Notes: generated from the sequence alone by a model not told the origin. DNA of 64,000 bases from Lachnospiraceae bacterium (GCA_017936885.1 JAGBEO010000001.1:1733-65732); one strand, 5' to 3'; shown: positions 3,124-29,627, counted from the stretch's first letter. A program made the numbers and translations.

Positions 3124-3609
3124 TTACAGATTTTCTTTCTGCCTGAATTGCTCTATATTTTGTGCTTCGGAAGCAGATAAAAGCCACTGTTCCAGCACTG
3201 TCTTGTCCTGTTGAGAGACGATTTTCTCTCTTAAATCTGCGGGAACCTCGCCCATGTTTTCTAACAGAGTCAGGATAGAAGCTGACATTCCTTCTTTCAT
3301 TCCTTCTTTTCTGCCAATCGCGATCCCCTCGTCTCTGATATAATCATCCTCAGCCCAGCGATCCCGTTTTGCTTTCCAATAATCATCGTAGAGCCACCGC
3401 AATGACTTTCTGATGCTCATATTTTTAACCATCCTGATGGCTTCTGCCATTCCCTCATTTTTAACTGCAATCATAGCCAGATCTGCCTCCTCCCGCGCAT
3501 TAAAAAGTCTGATCCAGTCATCCACCGGTGTCCCTTGTAATGCTTTTGTCAGTTCAATAATGTGTACTTCCCATAAATCTGTCAATTCTTTTCCCCAAGT
3601 GTCGCGCAT
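3124..3609 (-). pseudogene. C-terminal fragment of a PDDEXK_2/Rpn-type putative transposase (N-terminal nuclease core missing)
   Basis: The sequence WEVHIIELTK...DDWIRLFNA...EGIAIGRKEGMKEG matches only the C-terminal half typical of this family. No PD-(D/E)XK core is encoded upstream. Confidence 0.45.
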
Positions 3610-4680: not shown

Positions 4681-5622
4681 TTATATATTTATCATTCCTC
4701 CGGCGGCGGCATATTCCTCTCTGGAGCATCCCGTTACACGCATTATGATCTGTTCATCTAACCCTTCGCGCAACAGACTGCGGAGGATGCGAATTCTTTC
4801 TTCCTGTTTGCCTTCTTTCCGGCCCACTTTTCTTCCCTCTTTCCTGCCATTCTGCTTCTCTTCCTTAAGCCATTCATCCAATGCCTTACACATAGGTTCA
4901 CCCTCCTCCTCTACCTTTCTCAACAAGACCTTATTATTCAGATGCGCTGATATTACCACTTCTGTTTCATGACTAAGCTTCTGAAACCGCTCCAGACGAA
5001 TCAGTTCTTCCAGCTTCTCCCTATCGCCTCTGCACTGCATCGCCTGAAAAAACTCCCTTAAATCCGTATGGTAATTCCGCACATCGATATAATCAGCTTC
5101 CATCAGTGGAAAACCGTAATCGTTGAACAGCACGCCAGATTGGCTTGCGACCTTTTGCGATATCCGAAGCAGCTCAGCCAGATTCTTCCTGCCGCGCCAG
5201 CGCCCTTCTCCCATATATAAAACCATCGTAATAACAGGCTTCAGACAATCTATTTCTTTCATCCGGCTCTTCTTCTCCCGATACGCCTCATAAGCCTTAC
5301 TCTTCCGATGTTCTCTGTCAATCTCCCGTATCTGGCACTCATATTCACTGGCATCGTAAACCATAATGCGCTCCGGCATGCTGTAATCAGATTCCAGCTC
5401 AATTTCCAGTCCATAACAGATATTCTGTCCGGAATCATACATCAATATGTCCCGTTCTTTCTCCCCGGATGCTGATGACAGCGACGGGTAGCTTCTTTTT
5501 AACAGTTCCAGCCTCTCTGGTACAAGAACCTTCTCTCCATGATAAATCTCCATGTTAATCAGTTCTGCAAACCTGTCTGGTCCGGCAAAGAACCTTCTGT
5601 CCAGTATATCAATTTTGCCCAT
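4681..5622 (-). CDS. Rpn (YhgA-like) family recombination-promoting nuclease / putative transposase, copy A
   Basis: PD-(D/E)XK-like core (RDILMYD ... GLEIELESDYSMPERIMVYDA, compare the YhgA motif LIEHQS..MxxR). Lys/Glu-rich C-terminal tail. Paralogous to 25391-26287. Confidence 0.8.
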   Translation of the reverse strand: MGKIDILDRRFFAGPDRFAELINMEIYHGEKVLVPERLELLKRSYPSLSSASGEKERDILMYDSGQNICYGLEIELESDYSMPERIMVYDASEYECQIREIDREHRKSKAYEAYREKKSRMKEIDCLKPVITMVLYMGEGRWRGRKNLAELLRISQKVASQSGVLFNDYGFPLMEADYIDVRNYHTDLREFFQAMQCRGDREKLEELIRLERFQKLSHETEVVISAHLNNKVLLRKVEEEGEPMCKALDEWLKEEKQNGRKEGRKVGRKEGKQEERIRILRSLLREGLDEQIIMRVTGCSREEYAAAGGMINI

Positions 5623-5674
5623 ATATCCCTTTCCGGCTGTATATACAATATACCTCGATTTGTGAAGGCAATTG

Positions 5675-5771
5675 TATCAGCCATCTTCTGATATTCGTGT
5701 GAAATATGGCTGATAACGCCGAAACCGGATATGGCCGGTTAATCAATTCCGAACGGAATTTTGAATTTCAC
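5675..5771 (-). promoter_or_regulatory. Structured 5' leader element of Rpn copy A
   Basis: Closing stem GTGAAAT (5699-5705) / ATTTCAC (5765-5771) encloses hairpins AACCGG..CCGGTT and AATTCC-GAAC-GGAATT. An alternative 10-bp stem TATCAGCCAT (5675-5684) / ATGGCTGATA (5706-5715) is also possible. The element is conserved upstream of copy B. Confidence 0.55.
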
Positions 5772-5799
5772 TGTTTATAAAACGTTTTTTATTAATTGC

Positions 5800-5828
5800 A
5801 TTATAGAAAGAATCTCATATGATGTCAA
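5800..5828 (-). promoter_or_regulatory. Consensus sigma-70-type promoter of Rpn copy A
   Basis: The minus strand reads TTGACA, a 17-nt spacer, then TATAAT (-35 at 5828-5823, -10 at 5805-5800). Confidence 0.7.
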
Positions 5829-6477
5829 TAGATTTCAGGACAAATAATGTACTAATTTTCGTTTATCTCATCTACTTTTCCCTTTTACATTGCCACATAA
5901 AACAATGCATTATACATAATATATAATACAATATTTTGTATTTTATTTATAAAGGTATTCGTTAATACACTACACTTAGTAGCATTTCTATATGGGTCAT
6001 TATTACGCCCATCTTTTTTCTACACATATTAATTCCAAAATTGTTCCGCTTCTTCTGTGTTATATCTTATAATATATTTATCTTCAATTGCTCTCTACAT
6101 CAATTCTGGTTGGTTGAAAACATCTCGGTTTCATCTTATTTTATGAAAGGTAATTTCCATGCAGGTTAAATCAACCGCTCCTTTTCAAATTTCCGGCTCT
6201 GCTCGCTCACCATACTTGCGCAAACTGACAGTCTTTTGGTCAAAACTCCATGATCCGACCTGATTCCACGTATAGCTTTCTGCATTTTTCACATAATAAA
6301 GCCGGAGGACATAGTGTGAAAAATCACACTGATGTGCTATTGTTTCACAAACTGAACGAGTTCAGTTGGTTATTTGTTTCTGAGCGAAAACAAATAGCTC
6401 TGATGGCAGATGAGAAACCATCTACGCGGATTTCTCATCGCCTCTTCGTGACAAGTCGTTCAGAAATGAGGATTAAA

Positions 6478-6704: not shown

Positions 6705-6787
6705 CCTCCATTGCCGCGGCATATTCCTCTTTTTCCCCGGTGCAAGAACCTTCTCTCCATGATAAATTTCCGTGTTAATCAATTCTA
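6705..6787 (-). pseudogene. Internally deleted remnant of an Rpn (YhgA-like) gene
   Basis: 6739-6787 matches the N-terminal coding part of copy A (about 5518-5567; AAGAACCTTCTCTCCATGATAAAT is identical). 6705-6730 matches the 3' end of copy A (about 4696-4724). Roughly 0.8 kb in between is missing. Confidence 0.65.
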
Positions 6788-7401: not shown

Positions 7402-7514
7402 GTCATACTCCTTATCTGCAGTGCTTGGTGACTTCTCTATTCTGTGAAAAATTTTGTACCTTCATCTCTATTTTAAAATGCCTTGTTACAATAGAGCTCA
7501 TAATCGGGATTCCT

Positions 7515-8627
7515 CTACAATACTTCTTTCGTTTTATCCAAAGCTGCCGCGATCACCGCATCCATGTCATAATACTTATATTCTCCAAGCCTTCCGCCAA
7601 TAATTACCTTTGCTTCCTTATCTGCCAATGTTCTGTATTTTTTATATAGTTCATTATTTTTCTCATCATTGACAGGATAATAAGGTTCATCCCCCTGTTT
7701 CCATTCGGAGCTGTATTCGCGGCTGATAACAGTCTTGGGTAAATCTCTTCCCTCTTCATCCTTGCCGAACTCAAACCATTTATGTTCAATAATACGAGTC
7801 CAAGGCGTTTCCTTGTCTGTATAATTGACTGCCGCATTCCCCTGAAAATTAGGTATATTCAAGATTTCTGTTTCAAAACGCACGGAACGATATTCCAGTG
7901 TTCCCAACTTATAGCCAAAATAGGCATCAATCGGTCCGGTATAAATTATTCTTGATGCAAGCTTGTCCAGTTCCGCTTTATTTTCCAGATACTCAATTCC
8001 ACGGCTGACTTCGATACCATCTAACATATTCATAACCATTTGCGTATAGCCGCCAACAGGAATGCCCTGATATAAAGCGTTGAAATAATTATTATCAAAA
8101 GTAAATCTGACCGGAAGCCGTTTGATGATAAATGCCGGAAGTTCTTTACAGGGTCTTCCCCATTGCTTCTCTGTGTACCCTTTGATTAATTTCTCATAAA
8201 TGTCAGTCCCCACTAAGCTAATCGCCTGCTCTTCAAGATTCGTGGGTTTTTCGATGCCAGCAACTTTCTTCTGTTCTTCTATTTTGGCAGCCGCTTCCTC
8301 CGGCGTTATAACACCCCACATCTTATTAAAGGTGTACATATTAAAAGGAAGGGAATATAATTCACCACAATAATTTGCTACCGGAGAATTGGTAAAACGG
8401 TTAAACGCTGCAAATCGATTCACATAGCTCCAGACCTCCCTGTTATTTGTATGAAAAATATGAGCGCCGTATTTATGTACATTGATACCCGCTATTTCTT
8501 CTGTAAAAATATTTCCTGCAATGTGAGGCCGCTTGTCAATGACAAGAACCGATTTACCTGCGTCTGCCGCTTGTCTTGCAAATACGGAGCCGTATAGACC
8601 GGCGCCTACTATTAGATAGTCGTACAT
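7515..8627 (-). CDS. glf: UDP-galactopyranose mutase
   Basis: N-terminal FAD fold YDYLIVGAGLYGSVFA, ...VHKYGAHIFHTNN, and full-length resemblance to Glf. Confidence 0.92.
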   Translation of the reverse strand: MYDYLIVGAGLYGSVFARQAADAGKSVLVIDKRPHIAGNIFTEEIAGINVHKYGAHIFHTNNREVWSYVNRFAAFNRFTNSPVANYCGELYSLPFNMYTFNKMWGVITPEEAAAKIEEQKKVAGIEKPTNLEEQAISLVGTDIYEKLIKGYTEKQWGRPCKELPAFIIKRLPVRFTFDNNYFNALYQGIPVGGYTQMVMNMLDGIEVSRGIEYLENKAELDKLASRIIYTGPIDAYFGYKLGTLEYRSVRFETEILNIPNFQGNAAVNYTDKETPWTRIIEHKWFEFGKDEEGRDLPKTVISREYSSEWKQGDEPYYPVNDEKNNELYKKYRTLADKEAKVIIGGRLGEYKYYDMDAVIAAALDKTKEVL

Positions 8628-8643
8628 TTATTTCTTCACCTTC

Positions 8644-9858
8644 TTATAAAATAGAAATTGTCCTAGTTAATCTTTCTGACAGATTATATCCATCCCAAAT
8701 CAGATCAAAATCCATAGTTTGACCGACCGGAACAATACGATCAATTCCTTTAATGCCAGATTTAATCAGAGGAATAAACATATCTTTGTCACCAATATAT
8801 CCTATCGTCTGGCATTTCTTGTCATTACAAAGATTATATAACTCAAGAATCTCATGACAATCGTACTCAAAGAAATACCCAGAATTATCTTTCATATCCA
8901 TGAGGTCATCTATAATTTCAGTAATTTGAACTCTAACGATTAGATTATCGCCGTTTTGCTTAATCTTAACTTTGTCTGCATGAACAGCCATCAAATAAGC
9001 ACTAGTTATTTTGTTAATTCCCTGAATAGGCTGAAAAGTATATTTCTTTAATACAACTTCGTGCAAATGAATCCAAAACAAATCTTTTGCTTTCGTTATA
9101 CAACTACCTGTCCACACAACAATACGCGGACTAGTGCAAGCATTCTGATCAGTCAAATATGTATCATTATAAAAATCTTCGGCAACTTTAGCCTTATTTT
9201 CAATTTCAATATATTTATCACTGTCAATAACAGCCAGCGAATATCTATCGGCAAATGTAACCTCACCTGCTCTAGATGATAACGGAGATTTACGGATTTC
9301 TTCAATTGTAGCATCACCGCCCCAAATAATTCTTACATCAGCTATAGCCGATAAGAAGTCATTAACTTTCTGATCTCTGTCATAACGAACAAGACAAATA
9401 TATGCTTTCATCTCTACAAATTCTTCAAGAGTCTCTTTAATAGCCCGATTGATAATTTCAACCTGTGGAAAATCTTTCGATGGAATTCTTACTATATTGG
9501 CATTGCCAGTAAGTAATCCACTCACCAAAGAATAGGCATAGTTTACGGGAACATTCGACGGTGCAATATGTAAGACAATTCCTCTTCCAAGGTGTAAATT
9601 ACTATCATCACATGAAAATCTATCCCTAAGTTTTATAATAGAAGTTTTTCTCATCCAAAATCCTAATGTAATGATATCAGGATATACTTGTGCTTCCGAA
9701 GATCTCATTAAACGTTTTGAGACATTACTAAGGAAATCCACAACTGATTCATCAAAAGGTTCTTTAGCTGCCACTTTAGACATTCCTTCAATTGTTTCAG
9801 CAGATCCAACTAAATAGGAAATGTTATCTAATACTTTTTTATTTATACTTTGCTGCAT
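8644..9858 (-). CDS. LuxC-like acyl-CoA/acyl-protein reductase (aldehyde-forming)
   Basis: HIAPSNVPVNYAYSLVSGLLTGNANIVRIPSK and the putative catalytic-Cys region TDQNACTSPRIVVW resemble the LuxC family. Start is placed at the internal Met, overlapping the upstream gene by 20 nt. Confidence 0.7.
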   Translation of the reverse strand: MQQSINKKVLDNISYLVGSAETIEGMSKVAAKEPFDESVVDFLSNVSKRLMRSSEAQVYPDIITLGFWMRKTSIIKLRDRFSCDDSNLHLGRGIVLHIAPSNVPVNYAYSLVSGLLTGNANIVRIPSKDFPQVEIINRAIKETLEEFVEMKAYICLVRYDRDQKVNDFLSAIADVRIIWGGDATIEEIRKSPLSSRAGEVTFADRYSLAVIDSDKYIEIENKAKVAEDFYNDTYLTDQNACTSPRIVVWTGSCITKAKDLFWIHLHEVVLKKYTFQPIQGINKITSAYLMAVHADKVKIKQNGDNLIVRVQITEIIDDLMDMKDNSGYFFEYDCHEILELYNLCNDKKCQTIGYIGDKDMFIPLIKSGIKGIDRIVPVGQTMDFDLIWDGYNLSERLTRTISIL

Positions 9859-10930
9859 AAGTATCACTACACCCCCTAATCTCTGCATTCTTTAATCTTC
9901 CGATAATCTTAAAATATTTACCTTTTCTACCACATGGACAATCATCTTCACCCAAAATAATTCCCTCATCCTCAGTAATCAAAGAATGCCCTGGATACGA
10001 CTCTGGAATTGTTGATACAACCTGTATAATACCCCTCTCTCCAAAATCACACTCAGAAAAATCTGTTGGTCTACGGGTAATCACATCCGAAAAAATGCTC
10101 GCATGAAGATGCCCACATTCACATTGCATATATATACATCCAGTTTGTTCTACCATTCCATAGTAATCGTGTATTTTGTCCAATCCACACATATCTTTCA
10201 GGCAATTGTGAAATTCTTTTGGGCTTACAGATTCATTAACAAGTTTCTTCCATCCACCACCATGAATGAGAATTCCGTTAGATAAATCAAATGTAATTCC
10301 TTCTTTTTTTAACTGACGCAACTCTTTATAAAAATGCTGCCATATCATAAAAGTGAAACCAAATAAAAGAATTTTCTGACCTTGAAATTTATTTAGAAAT
10401 TCTTTTAAACCTTCTACATCCAGTCTCATATCATCATCTAAAGCATACATTTTTCTTGTTCCGAATATAGAAAATCCCAAAATACCAGCACCTCTTGCTG
10501 AAAACATCGCTCTATCTTTCACGACAGATGGACAATCAATAATAATCATGGGCATACGACTAGAACCCGTAAAATCAGAAACAATTTTAACCATAGCCTT
10601 CTGTTGATTAGAAGATGTTTTTTTATCCAAAAATATTTTTGAAACAGCCTGTCCTGATGTTCCTGAGGATGTCATAGTCTTTACTATCTTTTCTTGAGGA
10701 ACACTTTTCAATGATAACTCCTTAAAAAGCCGTACCGGTAAAAAGGGCAACTCTTTATATGAAGTTACTATACAAGAATTATAGCCGATACTTTCCAATA
10801 TCCTTTTATATTCATCACAATGCTCTTTATGGTATATTGTCAACTCTACTAGGCGTTTTGTAAGAATTTTCTTCTTATCCTCTTTTTCAAGCGAATAGGG
10901 TGAAATATCTATAATTTCTTCAAATTCCAT
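9839..10930 (-). CDS. LuxE-like acyl-protein synthetase (adenylate-forming)
   Basis: TMTSSGTSGQ P-loop-like motif. Overall layout matches LuxE / F390-synthetase-like enzymes. Translationally coupled to the LuxC-like gene. Confidence 0.7.
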   Translation of the reverse strand: MEFEEIIDISPYSLEKEDKKKILTKRLVELTIYHKEHCDEYKRILESIGYNSCIVTSYKELPFLPVRLFKELSLKSVPQEKIVKTMTSSGTSGQAVSKIFLDKKTSSNQQKAMVKIVSDFTGSSRMPMIIIDCPSVVKDRAMFSARGAGILGFSIFGTRKMYALDDDMRLDVEGLKEFLNKFQGQKILLFGFTFMIWQHFYKELRQLKKEGITFDLSNGILIHGGGWKKLVNESVSPKEFHNCLKDMCGLDKIHDYYGMVEQTGCIYMQCECGHLHASIFSDVITRRPTDFSECDFGERGIIQVVSTIPESYPGHSLITEDEGIILGEDDCPCGRKGKYFKIIGRLKNAEIRGCSDTYAAKYK

Positions 10931-11642
10931 AACTATTATTTAACCTTTCCAATATTATTTCTGCCATTTTCCTGTAATGTTCCTGAATAAAGAAATGATT
11001 CCCTTCAAATTCATAGAAACAACAATTATCTGTAAAATATTGTTGCCATTGCATCATATCTTTCAATGGTGTATCAGTCTCAGAATAAAATATTGTTGCT
11101 GGAATCTTTGTTTCTAGGGAAAGTTCTTCAAACCTATATTTTCCAATGATTAAATAATCGGCTCTATATATAGGCAGATATACTCGCCAAAAAATTTTAT
11201 TATTTACTAATTTCTCTGGAATCCCACCGAATTTTATTGTTCTCTCTTTTACGTATTCATCTAATTCATTTTCATCAAAGCTTACTAATTCTGTCTTAGA
11301 ATGGGGTTCATGAGCAGCCAAAAATATATGTCTTGGAAGTAATATTTCATTTCGTTTCATTATAAGCTTCAACACTTCTATTACTGTAATACTTCCCATG
11401 CTGTATCCCATAAGTGCATAGCTATTACAACCATGGAGATAACTTCTTATGTTGCGATACATATCTTCCGCAAGCTCATTAAAATCATTATAAAATGGCT
11501 CTTTATGACGCATCCCATGTCCTGAGTATTCTAACTTAACAAACTTAATCTGTGGGAGACAGTCATCTAACTGATCAAAAAAGTTTAATGTACCTCCTGC
11601 ATATGTAAAACAAAATAAAATCATCAATTCACCTGATTCCAT
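10920..11642 (-). CDS. Type II thioesterase (alpha/beta hydrolase)
   Basis: FCFTYAGG N-terminus, GYSMGS nucleophile elbow (GxSxG) and C-terminal GNHFF, as in GrsT/TEII-type thioesterases. Confidence 0.75.
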   Translation of the reverse strand: MESGELMILFCFTYAGGTLNFFDQLDDCLPQIKFVKLEYSGHGMRHKEPFYNDFNELAEDMYRNIRSYLHGCNSYALMGYSMGSITVIEVLKLIMKRNEILLPRHIFLAAHEPHSKTELVSFDENELDEYVKERTIKFGGIPEKLVNNKIFWRVYLPIYRADYLIIGKYRFEELSLETKIPATIFYSETDTPLKDMMQWQQYFTDNCCFYEFEGNHFFIQEHYRKMAEIILERLNNSYGI

Positions 11643-11669
11643 AATAATGTGTCATCCATCACTTCTTAA

Positions 11670-13121
11670 TTAAATATTTCGAGCAATTTTGGATAAAATT
11701 TGTTTAAAAATATCATTTACCAAAGGCTCTTTGAGAATAAGAAGAACTATTCCGTAGAATCCAAAAAATAATGTTCCTGAAATTAATAACGAAAGAACAC
11801 TACTGAAATCAAACCATTTAACCCATATGCAACTTAAACAACTAACAACCAACGCAATAAAAATTCGACCGTAATGAATTTTCCTATAAGCATTAATTAC
11901 TTGATCTTTCAAAACAATAAGCTGATAAACAAATACAGATATCTCCGCAATCAAAGTGCCTATTGCCGCTCCAGTTGCGGCTAATTTAGGAATTAAAAGC
12001 AGATTCAAGATCAAATCAACCACTGCCCCTACTATTTCAGAATATAAAACTACAATTTCCCTATTAAGCGGAACTAATATTTGAATCCCCATGATATTAG
12101 TCAATCCAATAAATAATATCGTTGGAATAATAACCTGCATTGGAACAATTGCTCCAACATAAGAAGTCCCTGATAGAAAAAAAATCCCTTCTTTAGCATA
12201 AATAATAAAATAAATCACCATCGGTGTAGCTAATAGTGCAACAAAATTTAATGCTTTCGTGGTAATTCTGTCGAATTCTTTTATTTTTCCTTGTTCAACA
12301 TAGTAAGAGGATCTGGGTAACAACACTGTACCTAAAGAAGTCACGATACTGAGCATTACTGTTTTTATTTTTACGGCAGCATTATAATACCCTACATCTT
12401 CATCTGTTGTCATGAAGCCAAGCATTACTGTATCCAAATGTGTATATATTGTTGTTGCACATGCCATAGCAAAAAATATTGAAATTGGCTTAAAATGAAC
12501 TCTAAGGTCATACCCTCCTACTGGTTTCACATCAATATATTTATGTACATTAAAAAAGTTAAAAATATTAGATGCAGAAGAAGCAAAAATTGAAATTGCG
12601 CCATATATAACATAATCGCTCCTATGATGTATAAGTAAAAACATCGAAATCAATGCTATAAATTTAAAAATCACTGATCTAATAGTAATATATGTATATT
12701 GCTCCAATGCTTTGTAAAGCCATTCCATTCCAATTGCATTTAGTGCAATTGTAAAACTAACGATAATATACAATGTTCTATCATCATAAAGCCTCGAAAC
12801 AGTAAATAAAGCCACACCGAGAGCAATATATGCAAGTATACTCATTAAAATATTCATGAATAATAATTCATGTGCAGTTCTTGTTAATGCTACTTTATCT
12901 TCTCTAACCTTTGCACATGCACGAACTCCATATGTAGGAATTCCCATTTGAGCAAACATATTAAAGTAATATATTAATGAAGTGGCAAAAGATACTCTTC
13001 CAGTTCCTTCTGGCAATAAAATTCTTGATATATATGGAAAGGTAACTAATGGAAAAATGAATGAAGACATTGTAAGCAATGAATTCATAATAAAGTTCCT
13101 TTTTATCGATGGATGACTCAT
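11670..13121 (-). CDS. wzx: Wzx-type oligosaccharide flippase (MOP superfamily)
   Basis: 483 aa with about 12-14 TM helices. The polysaccharide-biosynthesis-protein N-terminus and the locus context fit a flippase. Confidence 0.8.
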   Translation of the reverse strand: MSHPSIKRNFIMNSLLTMSSFIFPLVTFPYISRILLPEGTGRVSFATSLIYYFNMFAQMGIPTYGVRACAKVREDKVALTRTAHELLFMNILMSILAYIALGVALFTVSRLYDDRTLYIIVSFTIALNAIGMEWLYKALEQYTYITIRSVIFKFIALISMFLLIHHRSDYVIYGAISIFASSASNIFNFFNVHKYIDVKPVGGYDLRVHFKPISIFFAMACATTIYTHLDTVMLGFMTTDEDVGYYNAAVKIKTVMLSIVTSLGTVLLPRSSYYVEQGKIKEFDRITTKALNFVALLATPMVIYFIIYAKEGIFFLSGTSYVGAIVPMQVIIPTILFIGLTNIMGIQILVPLNREIVVLYSEIVGAVVDLILNLLLIPKLAATGAAIGTLIAEISVFVYQLIVLKDQVINAYRKIHYGRIFIALVVSCLSCIWVKWFDFSSVLSLLISGTLFFGFYGIVLLILKEPLVNDIFKQILSKIARNI

Positions 13122-18616: not shown

Positions 18617-20008
18617 TCACTTTACCGGCAACTGTGAGTACAGGACTTTGCCAGACTCATTATGCGGAATTTCATCAATATGTTTAACAGAAAACGCTGT
18701 TCTATTTAAACCTGTTTTGGAAGAGATAAATTCAACTAGTTTTTCGCAATCATCCGCAGTTGTATAAACAAGCATATGATCATCTTCGCCAACACATGCG
18801 ACTTCATATCCTTCTTTACCAAAAAGGTCTTCTACTTCTACCAAATTTACACGATTACCAAAAATTTTAAGGAAACGTTTCTTTCTGCCAACTACATAAT
18901 AAAAACCATCCTTATCTCTTTTAGCCATATCTCCAGTCTCAAGGCGGCCTTTTCGTTCATCACCCTTATTCAGATCTTCTCTGGATTCTGCATATCCAGG
19001 GGTAACATTTGGTCCATAATAAACCAATTCGCCAACTTGCTCTGGCTCAGTAATCACACTGCCATCCACATCAATAAGTTCAAAATGTCCACCAGGGATT
19101 GCAATGCCAATACTTCCGGCTTTTTCTACCGTTTTATCTGCAGGTACATAACTCATTCTTGCTGTAGCTTCAGTAGCGCCATACATAACTACAAGTGCCT
19201 TCCCTTTTTCACGCATACCTAACCCAAACTTACCGTGAAGCTCTTCTCCCAATCTTCCTCCTGCCTGAGTAATATATCTGAGAGAAGGGAGATCCATTTG
19301 AAGAAAACGTAATTTATCCAACATTTGATATGTATAAGGAACTGCACCAAAAGTAGTAGCCTGAGACTTCTGGAAGTAATCCCAAAAACCTCTGTCAAAG
19401 AAGGTCTGTTCTGTTAGTATAAGTCTTGCTCCTGCCAAAAGATGTGACTGGACAATTGATAGTCCATAAGTGTAATTCATTGGCAAAGTTGTTATTGCCC
19501 TATCTTGCGGAAGAATCCCTAAATATTTAACGATAGCTTCGGTATTGGACTGAATATTGACATATGTTTGTCTCACGAATTTAGGACTCCCTGTACTACC
19601 GGATGTTGTCAGCATAACAGCTAAATCTTCATCCATTGCCGGAACCTGTGTTCCGGTTTCGATAAGTTTATAATTCTCCATCTCATATACAGGCAAATTA
19701 TCTACGAAATCATTTGGGCACCAAATATACTGTGGCTTGTAAATATTTACAAGATTTTCATACAATGCCCTATCAATTGTATGACCAAGCATTACTGGCA
19801 CAATCCCTTTTTGAAGGAAACCAACATATCCAGCAACTGCCCCAATTGAATTTTGGCAAATGCAAAAAAGCAACGAACGCTGCGAAATACGGCTTGAAAT
19901 TTCCTGAGCCATTTTATCCAGCTGCCCATAAGTAATTTCTCTGGATTCCTCCATCAATGCTACGGAATCCTCAAATTGTGCAAGATTGCACCAAAAATAA
20001 TTGCTCAT
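18617..20008 (-). CDS. AMP-binding adenylate-forming ligase (acyl/aminoacyl-carrier-protein ligase-like)
   Basis: TTSGSTGSPKFV, YGATEA and GDMAKRDKDGFYYVVGRKKRFLKIFGNRV core motifs. It sits immediately downstream of the carrier-protein gene. Confidence 0.85.
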   Translation of the reverse strand: MSNYFWCNLAQFEDSVALMEESREITYGQLDKMAQEISSRISQRSLLFCICQNSIGAVAGYVGFLQKGIVPVMLGHTIDRALYENLVNIYKPQYIWCPNDFVDNLPVYEMENYKLIETGTQVPAMDEDLAVMLTTSGSTGSPKFVRQTYVNIQSNTEAIVKYLGILPQDRAITTLPMNYTYGLSIVQSHLLAGARLILTEQTFFDRGFWDYFQKSQATTFGAVPYTYQMLDKLRFLQMDLPSLRYITQAGGRLGEELHGKFGLGMREKGKALVVMYGATEATARMSYVPADKTVEKAGSIGIAIPGGHFELIDVDGSVITEPEQVGELVYYGPNVTPGYAESREDLNKGDERKGRLETGDMAKRDKDGFYYVVGRKKRFLKIFGNRVNLVEVEDLFGKEGYEVACVGEDDHMLVYTTADDCEKLVEFISSKTGLNRTAFSVKHIDEIPHNESGKVLYSQLPVK

Positions 20009-20020
20009 TCTTACTACCTC

Positions 20021-20260
20021 TTAAATTTCCACTTCGTATTTCTTCAGAATTTCTTTTCCTTTTAAATAGGAAGAAAAATCAATAATATCATCCGTATCCA
20101 TCATAATATCAAATGCATCCTCAAGCGCAGCAACAAGCGACATATGACCAACAGAGTCCCATTGCTCAACACCCATATACTGAAGACTATCGAAGTCTGG
20201 ATTTGCCAGTTCGAAAGTTTCGCAAAATGCCTGATTATACTTTTCTAAATTTGTCATCAT
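20021..20260 (-). CDS. Acyl carrier protein (phosphopantetheine-binding, DltC-like)
   Basis: 79 aa, acidic, with the WDSVGHMSLV serine attachment motif. Confidence 0.8.
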   Translation of the reverse strand: MMTNLEKYNQAFCETFELANPDFDSLQYMGVEQWDSVGHMSLVAALEDAFDIMMDTDDIIDFSSYLKGKEILKKYEVEI

Positions 20261-20305
20261 TATTCTCCTTTTTTGAAAAAAAATTATTAATCATGTTGAA
20301 AAGAA

Positions 20306-20977
20306 TTACTCCTCCTCAACTATTTTCCTATACTTCATTTTATTTGCCGGAATACCGGCCACCTTCTGATCAGGCTTTATATTAGCAAATACCATGCTTC
20401 CCGAGTAAACTTGGACATTGTCTCCGATTTGTATATGTTCCATTAAGAAAGCATGACTCCCAATCCGAACCTTCTTACCTATATCAGCATTTGTAATATT
20501 GGCAAGTGCATCTATTGTCGTATATGCACCTACATGAGCGGCTCCCGCCATAACATTTATCATCGTCACAAACTCATCAAATACCGCCCCATCTTTAAAA
20601 CTATAATTTGATATTACACAGCCTTCACCTATATGGAGATGATCCGGCACCAAAGTCCAAGGAGTAAGAATTGTCAAAAAATCTGCGCCTTTATCTTTCA
20701 GAATTTTCGCAAAGTGTTCTTTACTTTCAGGATTTTTTATTCCCATAACATATTGTTCATTTTTAGTTGGCTGCCATGAATCTATATCTCCTAAAATTGG
20801 TTTAATGCTATTGTCAACCAATCTAAACGGATGCGAGTGGTTAGAAATAAAACCCATAATATTGTATGTGTCATTAGATAACCGTTCTTTTTCAACATAA
20901 CCATTGATCTCATTTAAAATTGAATATATTTCTAATCCAAATAAATCCTCACAGACTATGATTACATTTTTTTGCAT
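20306..20977 (-). CDS. NeuD/PglD-type sugar N/O-acyltransferase (left-handed beta-helix), paralog 2
   Basis: N-terminal Rossmann-like NVIIVCEDLFG followed by C-terminal hexapeptide repeats. Paralogous to the adjacent gene. Confidence 0.75.
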   Translation of the reverse strand: MQKNVIIVCEDLFGLEIYSILNEINGYVEKERLSNDTYNIMGFISNHSHPFRLVDNSIKPILGDIDSWQPTKNEQYVMGIKNPESKEHFAKILKDKGADFLTILTPWTLVPDHLHIGEGCVISNYSFKDGAVFDEFVTMINVMAGAAHVGAYTTIDALANITNADIGKKVRIGSHAFLMEHIQIGDNVQVYSGSMVFANIKPDQKVAGIPANKMKYRKIVEEE

Positions 20978-20997
20978 ATAATTAACCTTTCTATGCT

Positions 20998-21642
20998 TTA
21001 CATCTGCGATTCAACCGCAGGAAATCCAAATACTTTCTTATCTGAAGGAATATCTTTTGTTACAATACTTCCTGCTGAAATATTGACATTACTGCCTACT
21101 GTTACTCCTTCCGTAACAACTGCATGACTGCCAACATAAACGCCCTCACCAATAGACGCATTTTCAACAACTGCAAATCCTGTTGTGGTACTGTAATCTC
21201 CAATAACAGCTCCCGGCATAATCATTGATCCGTGCATATTAACATAGTTTCCTATCTTTACACCACTTGCGATATGGTAAGCTTTTATCAGGCAGCCTTC
21301 ACCAATTATTAAATCTTCAGGAAGAATAACATAAGGTGCAATAATTGTTTCAAACTGGCAACCTCTGTCTTTGAGCTTTTCCACGACTTCTTTCTTTGAT
21401 GAAGGCTTGCCTAATCCAAGTGCATAGGCTTCATGTCCAACAGGTTTCCAATCTTTAATTGTCCCTAAAATAGGAAGATCAATTTCTGTATTATCTAAAG
21501 CATCCGGAATATCATTAATAAATCCCAATAAATTGTATGGTTCCTCTTTCCCATCTTTTTTTGCAGCCTGGTTTATTTTTCTTATGGTATAGTACATTTC
21601 TTTTCCATAACTGCCCGCACATACAATAATGATATCTTTCAT
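20998..21642 (-). CDS. NeuD/PglD-type sugar N/O-acyltransferase (left-handed beta-helix), paralog 1
   Basis: MKDIIIVCAGSYGKE N-terminus and hexapeptide repeats (IGEGVYVGSHAVVTEGVTVGSNVNISAGSIV). Confidence 0.75.
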   Translation of the reverse strand: MKDIIIVCAGSYGKEMYYTIRKINQAAKKDGKEEPYNLLGFINDIPDALDNTEIDLPILGTIKDWKPVGHEAYALGLGKPSSKKEVVEKLKDRGCQFETIIAPYVILPEDLIIGEGCLIKAYHIASGVKIGNYVNMHGSMIMPGAVIGDYSTTTGFAVVENASIGEGVYVGSHAVVTEGVTVGSNVNISAGSIVTKDIPSDKKVFGFPAVESQM

Positions 21643-21663
21643 AGTTATCCTCTTATTTTTTTA

Positions 21664-22626
21664 TCAATTAACTTTGAATGACTTTTTGAAAGAGTACTTT
21701 AAGCTTCGTCTACACCCTACACTTTCTTTAAAATCACATAATCCATAATTTGGAATACTGTCCTCTGTTGCTATTTCTTTGTTCAATATCTTATAGCCTA
21801 AATTTCCATAATAATTAATAGTAAAATAGGTCAGCATATTCATTCCATTATCTCCTGCATGATCAGGAAGTGTCCCTGTATATATGCCCTGTACAATTTC
21901 TTTATTAATTCGATATAAAAATTCAGCAACTATCCCAATCTCCCCATTTCTTACGATAAACACATCATGATCTACTAATTTCATTGTATCCATCAATTGT
22001 TCAAAAGACATACGAACGGGAAATCCTTTAAACTCATGTCCCATTTTCACTATTTCATATGCCTCAGCATATTCTTCTTCCGTTTCACATTTTTGAATGG
22101 TGAGACCATTTCTCTGTGCGCGTCTTAAACTCTTTCTTCCTTTAGCTGTAATCAATTGACCATAAGATTCGACATCAACATTCATCTCCTCTAAATCAAT
22201 TGCATAATTCACATCTATTTTAGTCAGTTCATAATTACATCGATAGAATGAACTAATCCATGCAGACAAAATATGCTCATCATAAAACATAGGAGGAAAA
22301 GTAAATCTAATTTCTGACACTCCAATGCTAATACAATAATTTTCTAAAGCCTGCACCGCCTCATCGTATGTAGCTAATTTTTCATTCTTTTTAATTTCCA
22401 CGGGATAAGAATAAGATGCCGAAAAAGGGCATTTAACCAAATCACCCGTTCTACCTAATATCAAACCAAATTTTGCAGCCTTCTCTCTCATAAATATAAG
22501 ATAATAGACCTCATCAACTTTATCCCTATTCAATTCACAAAAAACCGGCTCATTAAAAAATATACGTCTATCTAAGACCAAACTTGTATATTCTTCTGCC
22601 GTAACTCTTAAAACATCCATAAACAA
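21664..22626 (-). CDS. FemAB/GNAT-fold acyl(aminoacyl)transferase-like protein
   Basis: About 320 aa with a two-lobed layout and a GRKSLRRAQRNGL segment reminiscent of FemAB/Acetyltransf_6 proteins found in glycan loci. The assignment is tentative. Confidence 0.4.
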   Translation of the reverse strand: MFMDVLRVTAEEYTSLVLDRRIFFNEPVFCELNRDKVDEVYYLIFMREKAAKFGLILGRTGDLVKCPFSASYSYPVEIKKNEKLATYDEAVQALENYCISIGVSEIRFTFPPMFYDEHILSAWISSFYRCNYELTKIDVNYAIDLEEMNVDVESYGQLITAKGRKSLRRAQRNGLTIQKCETEEEYAEAYEIVKMGHEFKGFPVRMSFEQLMDTMKLVDHDVFIVRNGEIGIVAEFLYRINKEIVQGIYTGTLPDHAGDNGMNMLTYFTINYYGNLGYKILNKEIATEDSIPNYGLCDFKESVGCRRSLKYSFKKSFKVN

Positions 22627-22634
22627 TTAATCCC

Positions 22635-23441
22635 TTATACTTTTCCGTAAAGTTCTTTCGCCGTATTCATACTTAGTGCATGTCCTTGCTCATCATATCC
22701 GACAAAATAAGATGCCGCATTTCCTTTCGCGCGTCGGTCTCTTACCTTTACTTCAAAAACCATCTTTACCAATAAGAAACACATACGGATATCTGTTATT
22801 AAACTCACATGCTCGACATACCAAATATCATTTTCAAACTGAATGTGGTACTGACACAGTCGTTCGCCTTCAGGCATAATAACACGAGGGCATTCCAATC
22901 CAGGTCGAACAACTGTCCTCATTTTATGTCTATCATTCATACGATCATGAAAAAACATCGGTAAAGGTCTGGGTCCAATAATGGACATGTCACCCTTTAA
23001 TACACTCCAAAAATTTAATAATTCATCCAAAGAATACTTGCGCATAATACGACCAAACTTGGTAACTCTCTCAGAAACCGGTAAGAGCTGCCCATTTTTA
23101 TCCTTATTATTATTCATATTTCTAAATTTAACTAACACGAATTCCTTGCCATCTTTTCCGCATCTGGATTGCTTGTATAAGATCGGGCTTCCCACATCTA
23201 TAAATGTACAAATTGCAAAAATCAGATTAAACGGCAAAAGAACTGTACACGCCGATAGCGATATCACAATATCTATCACTCTTTTACCATACTTTGTATA
23301 AAAAGTTTTTTTCGGGCATACTTTTTTTGCAACTTCGTTGGCATGAACAAGATTTTTAGTTCTTAACATTTCTGCCATTTCAGCTTCATTCCAAGAGATC
23401 AGGCTTGAATTTCCCACATATTTCTTTTCATCTATAATCAT
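22635..23441 (-). CDS. Small monotopic phosphoglycosyl transferase (PglC/WbaP C-terminal-type priming sugar transferase)
   Basis: KRVIDIVISL...SPILYKQSRCGKDGKEFVLVKFRNM...LDELLNFWSVLKGDMSIIGPRP is the bacterial sugar-transferase signature. Confidence 0.88.
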   Translation of the reverse strand: MIIDEKKYVGNSSLISWNEAEMAEMLRTKNLVHANEVAKKVCPKKTFYTKYGKRVIDIVISLSACTVLLPFNLIFAICTFIDVGSPILYKQSRCGKDGKEFVLVKFRNMNNNKDKNGQLLPVSERVTKFGRIMRKYSLDELLNFWSVLKGDMSIIGPRPLPMFFHDRMNDRHKMRTVVRPGLECPRVIMPEGERLCQYHIQFENDIWYVEHVSLITDIRMCFLLVKMVFEVKVRDRRAKGNAASYFVGYDEQGHALSMNTAKELYGKV

Positions 23442-23456
23442 CTATAATTAAAAACC

Positions 23457-24566
23457 TCAGAATTCATTAATAACATCAATCACATACTGCACTTCTTCAT
23501 TTGACATACCATAATACATTGGCAGACTTAGCTCTGTGGCACTGATTTCTTCTGCAATAGGATAATCACCTTGTTTAAAGTCTAAATCTTTGTAACACTT
23601 TTGCAAATGCATAGGAATAGGATAATGTTTATTCGTACCAACTCCCTTATTTTTAAGATACGCTTCCAATTCATCTCTTCTCTTACAACGAATTCCAAAA
23701 ATATGCCAAACCGGAACTGCATCCTCAATTATGTATGGAAGAATCACATCCGGATTCTTAATTCCTTTCAAGTATCGATCTGCTATTCTACGTCTTTCTA
23801 CATTCATTCTCTCAAGATGCGGAAGCTTTGCCGCAAGAAATGCCGCCTGCATTTCATCAAGTCTGGAATTGTGCCCCTGATAAATGTGATGATATTTATA
23901 ATCAGAACCATAATTGCCCAAAGCTCTTACTCTATCAGCCAGTTCTCTATTGTTGGTCAATGCCGCGCCAGCATCACCAAGTGCTCCCAGATTCTTGCCC
24001 GGATAAAAACTAAAACCTGCCGCATTACCAAAAGAGCCTACCTTCTTCCCTTTATATGTTGCACCATGAGCCTGTGCGCAATCCTCAATCACATACAAAT
24101 TATGCCGTTTTGCAATTTCCATGATTGGATCCATATCACAAGGTTGACCATAAAGATGTACCGGCATAATAGCTTTTGTCTTATCTGAAACAGCTGATTC
24201 TATTTTGCGTGGATCTATATTAAAGGTTCTGATATCTGGCTCTACAAAAACAATCGTTGCTCCCACATATGTGACGGCTAAGGCTGTTGCAATATATGTA
24301 TTGGAAGGTATAATAACTTCATCTCCTGATTTAATATCGAGTGCTTTCAGGATAAGCATCAATGCGTCAAGACCATTGCCAACACCAACACAGTAATTAA
24401 CTGTACAATATTCAGCAAAAGCTTTCTCAAACTTTTCGTCTTCTTTACCATCAATATACCAACTTCGTGTATATACTCTCTCAAATGCAGTTCTCAAATC
24501 TTTATCTAATTCACGCTCCATTGGAAGAAAACTAACAAAAGGGATTTCCATAATCTCATTCCTCAT
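23457..24566 (-). CDS. DegT/DnrJ/EryC1-family PLP-dependent sugar aminotransferase (FdtB/QdtB-like)
   Basis: Full-length match to the family layout and adjacency to the 3,4-ketoisomerase gene. The start may be the Met at 24551. Confidence 0.88.
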
Positions 24567-25005
24567 CCTGCTTCTTTTTTACATATGCTAAGTACTCATC
24601 ATAATCTCTAATGTATTCATCCGGATCATAGTATTCAGAAGCAGCGACACAGAGTACAGAATCATCATGTTTCCATATCATTTCTCTCCAAAGCCCCGGA
24701 TGAAGAACCAACCCTTTAGATGGCTCATCTAATGTCACCGTTTCGATATCTACACCGTCATTTAGAATAATTTCTATTGAACCATACGGACAAAAAAGTA
24801 ATTGCCAATTTTCTTTATGTGCATGAAAACCTCTATGCTGATTTTTTTCAGTTCTGTAAATGCAATAAACTCTCTGGATTGAAAATGGAATATCTCTTTT
24901 ACTCTCAACAAAAGACAAACCACCTAATTTGGGATCCGGATTCATTACAGTGTTAAGATTCATCAACTCGTACTTCATAACTAATTTCCTTTTCAAATTA
25001 ATCAT
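24556..25005 (-). CDS. FdtA/QdtA-type (WxcM-like cupin) dTDP-4-keto-6-deoxyhexose 3,4-ketoisomerase
   Basis: [44 protein letters not shown] is the family signature. The start codon is uncertain (alternative Met at 24978). Confidence 0.8.
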
Positions 25006-25317
25006 TATATTTCATTAATAACATCAAAAATATTCTTATATATCTCATTAATACCGCTTATCATACCATTATTTCAACAATAACTCCTCTTCAAACCAAG
25101 TCACTTATGAACATTTAAGTATCCCCTCTGGTATGATAATTTCAACCTTTTAATATTCAAATTCAAAGAATCATTTTAAAAATTAGTTCTATTTTCATTT
25201 AATAATTTTCCACCTCGATAAATTATATTCAACGTAGTATAATAGATCCGCTACAAATACATTTATTGTTAACCATACCTCGCTTTTTTGTTTCACAATA
25301 AAAAACTCCCAACATAA

Positions 25318-25337
25318 GACAATTACATACCTTACAT
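25318..25337. repeat. Left arm of a perfect 20-bp inverted repeat flanking Rpn copy B
   Basis: GACAATTACATACCTTACAT is the exact reverse complement of 26555-26574. Confidence 0.95.
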
Positions 25338-25390
25338 CAGGAGTTTCTTCCATAAATATTATTCAGCTGTATAATTTCAGACCTTTCTTC

Positions 25391-26287
25391 CTATCTTCCA
25401 GCTTCTGCAAGCACAAGCTCTTCCTTCGTGCAGTTCAGAATACTCATAATCAAATCTTCTTCCAGTCCAACCTGCAACATCTTCTGCATCGTTTGATGTC
25501 TTTCTTCTGCTCTGCCAATTTCTCTTTCTTCTTTCATCCAATCATCCAATGCTTTACACATAGGCATTCCCTCCTCTACCTGCTCAAACAGTCTGTCATT
25601 CCCCAGATGCACAGCAATCACCCGCTCTGTTTCCCGACTGAGTTTCCGAAATCTTTCCGTTTGACACAGTTCCTTTAATTGTTTCTTATCTCTACGGCAC
25701 TGCATCGCCTGAAAGAATTCCCTCAAATCTGTGCAATACTTTTCAGGCTGAACATACTCTGTCTCTATAAGCGGGAAATCATAATCCCAAAGTCTCCTGC
25801 CAAGCTGATGCTTTACCTGTTCCGAAACCCGAAACATCTCCCAAAGCTTCATTTTGCCTTCCCAGTGCCCTTCCCCTATATAAAGAACTATCGTCACAGT
25901 TGGAATCAGAAAGTCGCTTTCCTTCAAGCGGCTCTTCTTATCACGGTATTTCTTATATTCTCCTTTGTCTCTATGTGCCTTGTAAATCTCTCGTATCTGA
26001 TATTCATACTCGCTGGCATCATAAGTCATGACACGTTCCGGCATACTATAATCAGACTCTGTCTCAATTTCCAATCCATAGCAGATGTTCTGTCCGGTAT
26101 CCTGCATCAGCACATCCCTGACTTTCTCACCGGATGACGATGCAAGGGAAGGATAACTTCTCTTAAGCAACTTCAATCTATCCGGCACAAGAATTTCCTT
26201 TCCGTGATACAGTTCCGTGTTAATCAGTTCCGCAAACCGCTCCCGGTCACCAAAGAATTTTTTATCCAGTATGTCAAATTTTCCCAT
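25391..26287 (-). CDS. Rpn (YhgA-like) family recombination-promoting nuclease / putative transposase, copy B
   Basis: MGKFDILDKKFF... is collinear with copy A (same EIE.ESDYSMPER core). Start is placed at the Met equivalent to the copy A start, preceded by GGAAAGGGG. Confidence 0.8.
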   Translation of the reverse strand: MGKFDILDKKFFGDRERFAELINTELYHGKEILVPDRLKLLKRSYPSLASSSGEKVRDVLMQDTGQNICYGLEIETESDYSMPERVMTYDASEYEYQIREIYKAHRDKGEYKKYRDKKSRLKESDFLIPTVTIVLYIGEGHWEGKMKLWEMFRVSEQVKHQLGRRLWDYDFPLIETEYVQPEKYCTDLREFFQAMQCRRDKKQLKELCQTERFRKLSRETERVIAVHLGNDRLFEQVEEGMPMCKALDDWMKEEREIGRAEERHQTMQKMLQVGLEEDLIMSILNCTKEELVLAEAGR

Positions 26288-26352
26288 ATACCCCTTTCCG
26301 GCTGTATGTATCACACTACTGTACTGCATACAATATCGCAGCTTCTTACCAC

Positions 26353-26445
26353 CAGCCATTTTCATTTATTTATGTGAAATATGGCTGATAACGCCGGAAC
26401 CGGATATATCCGGTTATGCAATCCAGAACAGGATTGGAATTTCAC
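26353..26445 (-). promoter_or_regulatory. Structured 5' leader element of Rpn copy B
   Basis: Same architecture as copy A: GTGAAAT (26374-26380) / ATTTCAC (26439-26445), hairpins AACCGGAT..ATCCGGTT and CAATCC-AGAACA-GGATTG, and an alternative stem CAGCCAT (26353-26359) / ATGGCTG (26381-26387). Confidence 0.55.
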
Positions 26446-26475
26446 TATGAAAGTAACGTTCTTTCATTTAAGTGA

Positions 26476-26504
26476 ATTATAAGGAATCCTTTTTCTTATG
26501 TCAA
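26476..26504 (-). promoter_or_regulatory. Consensus sigma-70-type promoter of Rpn copy B
   Basis: The minus strand reads TTGACA, a 17-nt spacer, then TATAAT (-35 at 26504-26499, -10 at 26481-26476). Confidence 0.7.
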
Positions 26505-26554
26505 TAGGATTTACGAAAAAATATAAACTTTTTTTCGTTCACCCTGTTCTTCTA

Positions 26555-26574
26555 ATGTAAGGTATGTAATTGTC
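26555..26574. repeat. Right arm of the perfect 20-bp inverted repeat flanking Rpn copy B
   Basis: ATGTAAGGTATGTAATTGTC is the reverse complement of 25318-25337. Confidence 0.95.
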
Positions 26575-26690
26575 AAGGTACATTTATTTCATTTTTCAGG
26601 ATACACAACAAAACCTACGTCCCATTCATCTTCTATTCATCCGGCGTAGGTAGGCTCATTCGGGTAGAACATAACCGCACTACGGAAATA

Positions 26691-26701
26691 CCCCCCCCCC
26701 C
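26691..26701. repeat. Homopolymeric C11 (G11 on the minus strand) tract
   Basis: Eleven consecutive C residues in intergenic DNA between the cps conserved module and the Rpn-B unit. Confidence 0.95.
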
Positions 26702-26754
26702 GAAAAAATATCAACTTTTTCACTTAATATCGGAATAATCCTTTTTGAAAACAT

Positions 26755-26774: not shown

Positions 26775-26828
26775 ACGCCACCCCACACTCGTTTTTTGAA
26801 TTCAAAAAAGTTATCCCTTAATCAAAGA

Positions 26829-29610: not shown

Positions 29611-29627
29611 ATTGATACCTTTCCCAA

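Follow-up and report, generated by a model that had tools for sequence, protein, structure and literature searches.

Introduction

Rpn nucleases are widespread antiphage proteins, toxic in their long form and blocked by a short C-terminal form that is produced from within the same gene; control of the long:short ratio is described as unresolved, with mention of 'additional regulation' (PMC10400941). Here, we describe a structured 5′ leader of approximately 170–190 nucleotides (nt) that precedes two Rpn-like genes, gene A and gene B, in 64,000 nt of Lachnospiraceae bacterium DNA (the window, i.e., the whole stretch analysed). If the leader gates the long form, it would answer the question of how this ratio is controlled. 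The encoded proteins share with E. coli Rpn a putative N-terminal PD-(D/E)XK domain, four-residue repeats (GRKE-like), a three-helix RpnA-S-type C-terminus and a putative internal start, but fall below the Transposase_31 and TIGR01784 cut-offs. Term searches of PMC10400941 revealed no mention of a 5′ leader element, and no inverted repeats are reported there for the E. coli rpn genes, whereas some of the copies described here are bracketed by such repeats.

A structured leader on a transposase-type gene is known from IS200 tnpA, where a stem-loop in the 5′ untranslated region (UTR) hides the Shine–Dalgarno sequence and keeps the gene nearly silent, and the 5′ UTR is processed to small RNAs (PMC4513863; PMC5435999). 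Our leader resembles it in the type of gene, the highly structured 5′ UTR and the predicted occlusion of the ribosome-binding site (RBS), but is unrelated in sequence and fold, with seven helices compared to the single stem-loop of IS200; neither an antisense RNA nor an antisense promoter was found at the leaders, and the protein is Rpn-like, of the putative PD-(D/E)XK type, rather than an HUH transposase. Shine–Dalgarno-sequestering riboswitches and other RBS-occluding leaders are similar in having a multi-helix 5′ domain, a junction strand that pairs with the RBS, an alternative fold that opens it and, possibly, a pseudoknot joining sensor and RBS. Unlike these riboswitches, the present leader has no Rfam match above chance level at E ≤ 10, occurs with one nuclease gene family and has a core made of helix strands. 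In type I toxin mRNAs, such as tisB, zorO and hok, a long structured 5′ UTR blocks the ribosome-binding or standby site, and activation requires refolding or 5′ processing. The likeness would lie in a structured 5′ UTR making the ribosome-binding site of a toxin inaccessible and the difference in the antitoxin, which would here be an RpnS-like protein from within the same gene and not an antisense RNA. By sequence and fold, the leader belongs to none of these three groups.

Architecture of the Leader in Copies A and B

Gene A (313 amino acids (aa); 4681–5622, start codon 5620–5622) and gene B (298 aa; 25391–26287, start codon 26285–26287), together with their leaders, are read on the minus strand of the window. 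The original prediction had placed a conserved structured leader behind a consensus promoter in both paralogs, and this was borne out. The promoters, TTGACA-N17-TATAAT, match the consensus in 12/12 positions (copy A, 5800–5828, minus strand; copy B, 26476–26504, minus strand), and the 23-nt core CGGCGTTATCAGCCATATTTCAC was found exactly twice in the 64-kb window versus zero expected occurrences. One and the same RNA motif stands in front of both genes, in the order promoter, P0, GUGAAAU, two hairpins, U(U/C)CGGC-GUUAU-CAGCCAU-AUUUCAC, linker, AUGGCUG, variable hairpin, GCCGGAAAGG and start codon. In the window copies, the A/U-rich linker measures 14 nt and the variable hairpin 40–50 nt, and the start codon lies 15 nt after the first G of GCCGGAAAGG.

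In copy A (all positions on the minus strand), the predicted transcript 5′ end and a weak P0 hairpin (−0.3 kcal/mol) lie at 5772–5799; most homologues have a P0 of differing sequence. These are followed by the near-invariant 5′ strand of P1, GUGAAAU (5765–5771), and by the hairpins P2, AAUUCC-GUUC-GGAAUU (5745–5760), and P3, AACCGG-CCAUAU-CCGGUU (5723–5740), both with compensatory changes among homologues. The junction then carries the anti-RBS strand UUUCGGC, the 5′ strand of P5 (5718–5724), which pairs with GCCGGAA, and the 5′ strand of P4, CAGCCAU (5706–5712; seven pairs), extending to UAUCAGCCAU (5706–5715). The 3′ strand of P1, AUUUCAC (5699–5705), leads into the A/U-rich linker (5685–5698), of kept length and varying sequence, which ends at the 3′ strand of P4, AUGGCUG (5678–5684, extending to 5675). 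The variable hairpin P6 (5638–5677), replaced by a hairpin of unrelated sequence in nearly all homologues, precedes the 3′ strand of P5 with the Shine–Dalgarno sequence in GCCGGAAAGG (5628–5637).

Copy B, likewise on the minus strand, has a P0 hairpin AUGAAAG-AACGUUA-CUUUCAU (26446–26475) and a core (26374–26445) scoring 97.7 bits. The core comprises the P1 strands GUGAAAU (26439–26445) and AUUUCAC (26374–26380), P2 (26419–26436; CAAUCC-UGUUCU-GGAUUG), P3 (26398–26415), the P5 5′ strand UUCCGGC (26393–26399) and the P4 5′ strand (26381–26387). Downstream of it are the linker (26360–26373), the P4 3′ strand AUGGCUG (26353–26359), P6 (26303–26352) and the P5 3′ strand with the Shine–Dalgarno sequence in GCCGGAAAGG (26293–26302).

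The elements named in the original prediction can be found in this layout. Its closing stem GTGAAAT/ATTTCAC is P1 (copy A, 5771–5765/5705–5699; copy B, 26445–26439/26380–26374), and its two hairpins have the sequences given there, read on the minus strand as AATTCC-GTTC-GGAATT in copy A and CAATCC-TGTTCT-GGATTG in copy B for the one and AACCGG...CCGGTT in both copies for the other. The alternative stem, P4, is exactly 10 bp in copy A (5675–5684 with 5706–5715), as had been claimed, and has seven Watson–Crick pairs, extendable by wobble pairs, in copy B. This second pairing, ATCAGCCAT/ATGGCTG, is kept in all homologues.

A promoter of the form TTGACA-N16–18-TA(T/C)AAT was present 23–36 nt upstream of P1 in 32/36 distinct homologous leaders. 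Since the promoter is conserved along with it, the leader element is almost certainly transcribed, as judged from sequence.

Occurrence and Conservation of the Leader

Relatives were collected in a scan, guided by the protein, that took a single genome for each species and yielded 16 loci, and in a metagenome scan, which yielded 44. They came from Lachnospiraceae, Acetatifactor and unclassified Clostridia assemblies and from one metagenome-assembled genome labelled Oscillospiraceae, with best-segment identities to protein A of 42–66% and full-length matches of 42–59% in the two scans. To detect leaders, we used a sequence profile together with a covariance model, R1 (98 positions, 18 pairs). 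R1 gave 68 matches over 66 other loci and the window, all directly upstream of the same Rpn-like gene; 57 of the matches (47–103 bits) were in ~331 kb of DNA, which contained none elsewhere. The leader was also present in 11/11 loci obtained later from more divergent proteins. The loci without a match were three unrelated loci and five contigs ending at the 5′ end of the gene, so that every homologue with its upstream DNA retained carries the leader directly upstream of the gene.

Conservation was calculated over 36 distinct leaders, and covariation on the model alignment with 31 distinct rows. The P1, P4 and P5 strands were 95–99% identical (conserved blocks, ~98%), whereas identity was only ~60% over the initial 99 nt of the coding sequence; the leader is thus better conserved than the gene. 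The linker between the 3′ strands of P1 and P4 was 12–17 nt long in 35/36 distinct leaders, A/U-rich and variable in sequence, the exception being homologue L004 with a self-folding insert of 100 nt. Counted from GCCGGAAAGG, the start codon was 14–16 nt downstream in all homologues. In nearly all of them, P0 and P6 were hairpins related neither in sequence nor in length, the P6 segment ranging from 17 to 57 nt.

Searching the whole window against Rfam 15 at gathering thresholds gave no match, and at E ≤ 10 within 5500–6000 only two chance-level snoRNA matches were obtained (E = 1.9 and 4.2), in line with the earlier failure to recognise the fold as any known riboswitch class. Among the papers searched, none combined Rpn nucleases with a riboswitch or leader. 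We conclude that the leader is a new structured RNA element with a seed of more than 36 distinct sequences from abundant gut bacteria; in its working principle, it would be an RBS-occluding structured 5′ leader attached to an Rpn-like gene. Comparison of the leader with PLSDB plasmids and INPHARED phages by blastn and an exact-pattern scan of IMG/VR for the motif were without a match, and the motif is, therefore, not evidently plasmid- or phage-borne.

Helix Support

Support for the individual helices is of two kinds. P2 and P3 show compensatory changes in eight pairs and 47 alignment cells, and their covariation score was reached by 0/500 column shuffles; pairing fell from 92% to 24–52% when the partners were slid against each other. 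All six modelled pairs of P2 (6/6) carry compensatory changes, with a loop that is usually RUUC, and at the second pair of P3, 18 distinct sequences have U-A, 11 have C-G and two have U-G. Given no structure, RNAalifold found P2, P3 and P4. A contact between the P2 loop (UUC) and a GAA in the linker, judged by eye, was not consistent across homologues.

The other helices vary in a different manner. P1 is invariant except for an A-to-G change, giving a G-U pair, in four distinct sequences and for variation of the last pair. P4 has seven pairs, 98.6% of cells being paired, with G-U or U-G as the only variants, and P5 (UUCCGGC/GCCGGAA) retains 6–7 of 7 pairs in all distinct homologues, likewise with wobble variants only. 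The variants of P1, P4 and P5, namely GUGGAAU, CGGCCAU, GUGGCUG, UUUCGGC and GUCGGAA, are all wobble-pairing, and the complementarity is consistent with pairing of the strands. Covariation had been proposed as the check on all stems; it was found for P2 and P3, while wobble-compatible changes were all that was seen in the closing stem and in the alternative stem. Since P2 and P3 are free to drift within the very same leaders, the P1, P4 and P5 strands appear to be constrained beyond simple pairing. The relatives are not divergent enough for compensatory covariation to appear in these three helices, and covariation speaks neither for nor against them; when the protein search was repeated starting with the most divergent member, and seven more contigs were added, extra loci were obtained and no fresh P1, P4 or P5 variation.

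The G-U pairs, of which there are many, would turn into A-C on the opposite strand, and the structure is, therefore, one of the sense transcript rather than of duplex DNA. This bears on the option that the element is a DNA-level site, i.e., a recombination site, a transposon end or an operator acting as duplex DNA. Such a function could be suspected from the annotation of the genes as putative transposases or recombination-promoting nucleases and from a 26-nt inverted repeat that brackets copy B and at least nine homologous loci. However, the repeat is located outside the leader, its arms being ~45 nt away from the −35 box on the upstream side and past the stop codon, the stems are kept via G-U pairs and compensatory changes, both relevant only to the sense single strand, the spacing between the complementary heptamers varies, and the element sits exactly between promoter and RBS. 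The DNA-level option, which had been left standing beside the regulatory one in the original prediction, is thus extremely unlikely.

Predicted Pairing with the Ribosome-Binding Region

The link to expression, absent from the original prediction, would be provided by P5, in which the junction strand pairs in every homologue with GCCGGAA at the 5′ side of GCCGGAAAGG, the ribosome-binding region. P4 is nested just inside P5, and P6 occupies the third arm. The unconstrained minimum free energy (MFE) folds of the window leaders have energies of −49.9 and −61.0 kcal/mol, with z-scores of −4.3 and −4.5, and occlude the RBS; in the MFE folds across the 36 homologues, P4 was ~77% and P5 ~76% formed. 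With P1 enforced, the fold was on average 4.4 kcal/mol above the P4 + P5 fold, P1 being the outright winner in six of the 36 homologues. The Shine–Dalgarno core was predicted to be 89% unpaired with P1 enforced versus 42% in the free ensemble. As far as prediction goes, the leader contains an alternative pairing that involves the RBS, as is typical of a riboswitch-type expression platform.

In the clade of the window copies, P5 can be extended to cover the AGG core and the start codon AUG as well, which costs P3. Such an extended anti-RBS helix, in which the loop of P3 and its 3′ arm pair with the Shine–Dalgarno core and the AUG and which is strong in this clade, was considered as a core part of the motif and rejected, as it was absent or register-shifted outside this clade.

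A terminator-like site, defined as a G+C-rich hairpin followed by a U-run, was found in neither window leader, and the expression platform would, therefore, be translational. Alternative pairings of the kind seen here could in principle form hairpins that decide on premature termination, as in the attenuator envisaged earlier. We give practically no credence to this mechanism, considering that the P6 hairpins of the homologues are likewise not followed by U-tracts and that the conserved downstream partner of the pairing is the ribosome-binding region.

Two open reading frames (ORFs) were inspected as possible alternatives and rejected. For an upstream ORF starting from AUGGCUG, frames 0, 1 and 2 all occurred, with lengths from 3 to >97 aa and no Shine–Dalgarno sequence at proper spacing. 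For an antisense small ORF (MADNAG...), only the invariant RNA block translated alike before the frames diverged. No antisense promoter with ≥9/12 matches was found within or reading into either leader.

Favoured Explanation and the Either/Or Question

The leader is probably a cis-acting structured 5′ UTR that controls translation initiation of the full-length, predicted toxic Rpn-like product. What the sequences show is that the leader is conserved and confined to this gene family, that P2 and P3 covary, that P1, P4 and P5 keep an invariant complementarity and that a terminator is absent, together with the predicted fold energies; from these we infer the transcription start, the repression of translation, its switching and the involvement of an effector. 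In the proposed mechanism, a strong constitutive sigma-70 consensus promoter would give rise to one mRNA that begins with P0 and continues into the three-way junction P1-P2-P3, the 3′ junction strand of which bears the invariant UUCCGGC and CAGCCAU. P4 (CAGCCAU/AUGGCUG) would clamp P5 (UUCCGGC/GCCGGAA) shut around P6, and with P4 and P5 formed, the RBS would be occluded and little long Rpn protein made. If the junction strand were instead held inside the P1-P2-P3 junction, the RBS would be freed, translation of the long product would be turned on, and the toxin:antitoxin ratio would rise. Candidate triggers are a bound protein, a small molecule, the kinetics of co-transcriptional folding or a cleavage in the A/U-rich linker. 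The long product would depend on the weaker site GGAAAGG, which P5 and P4 can occlude, while the short RpnS-like product would be made from its own canonical internal site, GGAGG-N7-ATG. Because the short product would have its own internal start, the leader would set the toxin-to-antitoxin ratio, and by gating only the RBS of the long form it would offer a concrete, mutable control point for the long:short ratio.

Cleavage in the linker leads to a further alternative, according to which processing of the structured 5′ part would release a stable RNA. This RNA would act in trans or be bound to the Rpn protein, and could be its partner, an RNA antitoxin or a small RNA like that of the IS200 5′ UTR. 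Processing of the IS200 tnpA 5′ UTR to regulatory RNAs is a precedent (PMC5435999), and a structured 5′ domain followed by a single-stranded A/U-rich linker, a possible RNase site, has a suitable layout. We nevertheless hold this to be very unlikely, as neither leader has a terminator or defined 3′ end, the variable P6 is self-paired and not guide-like, and the scanned DNA contained no second copy away from the gene.

Whether P1 and P4/P5 exclude each other was a central claim of the original prediction, and only part of it stood. The pairings do cross in nested folds; P1 crosses both P4 and P5 in the nested model, and folding programs, therefore, treat them as alternatives. On the other hand, P1 and P4 have no bases in common; the 5′ strand of P4 runs directly into the 3′ strand of P1 with zero bases between them, and the 3′ strand of P3 runs equally directly into the 5′ strand of P5. 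As H-type pseudoknots are laid out in this way, here with a 12–17-nt A/U-rich third loop, P1 and P4 might coexist. A strict either/or logic of P1 versus P4/P5 is plausible, and within the translational-control explanation we lean somewhat towards a true switch.

The main competitor is a static fold, in which P0–P6 would all be present together as a compact double pseudoknot, with P4 stacked on P1 and P5 on P3. It would constitutively damp translation of long Rpn and/or stabilise the mRNA 5′ end, thereby fixing a low toxin:antitoxin ratio. The directly adjoining strands (P1 3′ with P4 5′, P3 3′ with P5 5′) without common bases conform with this fold, as does a linker of the length, A/U-richness and sequence variability expected of a pseudoknot loop; L004 tolerates its 100-nt self-folding insertion at this very place, and P4 or P5 uses every base of the junction strand but the variable 4–5-nt spacer. 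However, constitutive occlusion would not require a conserved P1-P2-P3 junction, and the two folds have nearly the same energy in nested folding, which suits a bistable design. Taken on its own, the static fold is, in our judgement, rather unlikely.

A metabolite riboswitch is a more specific proposal, with the P1-P2-P3 junction as a small-molecule aptamer and ligand binding, for example of a nucleotide-derived compound or a stress or infection signal, freeing the RBS. The three-way junction, in which the peripheral helices covary around a core that is invariant, the predicted translational expression platform and the failure to match any known class would fit. Arguing against it, 68/68 matches precede one nuclease gene family and never metabolic or transport genes, the invariant bases are all helix strands and not unpaired pocket residues, the spacer between the invariant heptamers is variable, and the phylogenetic range is narrow. 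We regard a metabolite riboswitch as quite unlikely; also within the translational-control explanation, a small-molecule ligand is a minority possibility, because all matches precede one gene family and the invariant bases form helix strands instead of an unpaired pocket.

Several points weigh against control of translation initiation by the leader. For P1, P4 and P5, the support consists of invariant complementarity and of changes compatible with wobble pairing, not of compensatory covariation, and a constraint from protein recognition or tertiary structure could explain the same conservation. The universal P5 pairing covers only GCCGGAA, the extension over the AGG core and AUG being clade-specific. 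P1 and P4/P5 could all be formed at once as pseudoknots, in which case there would be no switching. Lastly, the leader goes with one gene family only, unlike what is typical of metabolite riboswitches, and there is no candidate ligand.

A more far-reaching version of the favoured explanation, to which we assign a low probability, is that the leader is a new sensor RNA that switches on toxic Rpn translation upon a specific signal, perhaps via a double-pseudoknotted fold. The signal could be, for example, a metabolite or phage product, or else the RpnS-type antitoxin itself. If true, the sensor RNA would be the trigger of an intragenic toxin–antitoxin or antiphage system in gut Lachnospiraceae.

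The Rpn-Like Gene Product

The proteins did not reach the thresholds of curated family profiles. Transposase_31 was hit in 5/13 members with a best E = 2.7 × 10−4, below cut-off, and TIGR01784 gave 25.9–28.1 bits versus a cut-off of 52.1, matching the C-terminal part only. PADLOC defence-system models gave no match for either window protein. The AlphaFold model of the Rpn-like protein had a predicted local distance difference test score (pLDDT) of 84 and a predicted template modelling score (pTM) of 0.74. Its predicted C-terminal domain matched E. coli RpnA-S (7th0) with a probability of 0.97, a target-normalised template modelling (TM) score of 0.74, a root-mean-square deviation of 1.4 Å and 39% identity. 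For the predicted N-terminal domain, many of the top Foldseek matches in the PDB were restriction-endonuclease-like, all of them weak (E ≥ 0.03); they included Card1, the R2 endonuclease domain, PaqCI, Can2, McrC and MGME1. Residues D58, D63, E73, E75 and K118 were invariant or nearly so, and some relatives have precomputed matches to PF27070 (HTH_Rpn_C).

The C-terminal RpnS-type three-helix domain is accompanied by four-residue repeats such as GRKEGRKVGRKEGK, the number of which differs between homologues, and by a putative internal start. In gene A, this is the nearly invariant Met244 (4891–4893, minus strand; GGAGG-N7-ATG, MCKALD...), and in gene B, Met243 (25559–25561, minus strand; GGAGGG-N7-ATG, MCKALD...). 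Initiation there would give an RpnS-like product of 70 aa (gene A) or 56 aa (gene B) beginning shortly before the repeats. As predicted from these features and the structural model, the gene arrangement is the long/short arrangement of Rpn toxin–antitoxin antiphage systems.

Three homologues (L006, L007 and L008; gene from 3001 onward) have in-frame stop codons and an intact leader, the stops in L007 and L008 following right after the invariant FFQAMQCR at residue 198. These could be pseudogenes or genes naturally split into a nuclease and a C-terminal part.

Promoter Region, Gene Calls and Genomic Context

A partly palindromic box, AAAACGAAAAAACG(TTT) (AACG...CGTT), was observed at 5854–5866 and 26525–26540 of the window (minus strand) and precedes the −35 hexamer by ~25–45 nt in many, not all, homologues. 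It could be an operator or UP-like element, adding a possible layer of transcriptional control. Upstream of the copy B cassette, an intergenic run of 11 C (26691–26701), with a similar C-run upstream of homologue L024, could be a slippage-prone tract.

The leader also has a consequence for annotation, as ORFs are wrongly extended into it from AUGGCUG. Gene callers often start the ORF at this site, or further upstream, when it is in frame, and this systematic mis-annotation leads to ORFs of 324–399 aa, among them copy B (324 aa, 25391–26365), P0142 (357 aa), P0044, P0036 and others. For gene B, the true start is the ATG at 26287; the 324-aa ORF from 26365 begins at the AUGGCUG of the leader.

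Both window copies are co-oriented within polysaccharide-biosynthesis clusters (~7500–13000 and 20000–32000), their neighbours including UDP-galactopyranose mutase, DegT aminotransferase and FdtA. Several homologues (L066, L069, L070, L072 and L073) are located between epimerase, glycosyltransferase, NeuB or Bac_transf genes, and variable surface-polysaccharide loci may be preferred insertion sites. Near copy A, a remnant resembling residues 20–45 of the Rpn-like protein (6708–6785, minus strand; tblastn E = 1 × 10−4) and a 161-aa ORF (3124–3609, minus strand) matching the C-terminal part only of Pfam PDDEXK_2 indicate further decayed Rpn-type genes.

The 26-nt inverted repeat (core GACAATTACATACCTTACAT, 92% complementary) lies at 25318–25343 and 26549–26574 and brackets the promoter, leader and gene of copy B as a unit of 1257 bp. 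The same repeat pair occurs at no fewer than nine other loci (L001, L010, L014, L023, L044, L066, L069, L070/71 and L073/74), ~220–315 nt before the ATG and ~33–100 nt after the stop codon. No target-site duplication was seen at the bracketed loci, and copy A and most homologues have no bracket; the repeat may be the boundary of an insertion-sequence-like cassette. Its downstream arm is part of a long hairpin with a U-run (AACTCC...GGGAGTTTTTT; 25302–25347, minus strand), a terminator-like site for gene B, and the flanking GGGAG(C/T)TTTT is conserved in other bracketed loci.

Directly upstream of the homologue in L001, a second unit (1452–2708) was observed, which has a related inverted repeat and no leader and encodes a different protein of 315 aa with Rpn-like features (QEGLQQG-type repeats). 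As this unit is bracketed and leaderless, tandem Rpn-type cassettes appear to share the bracket and not the leader.

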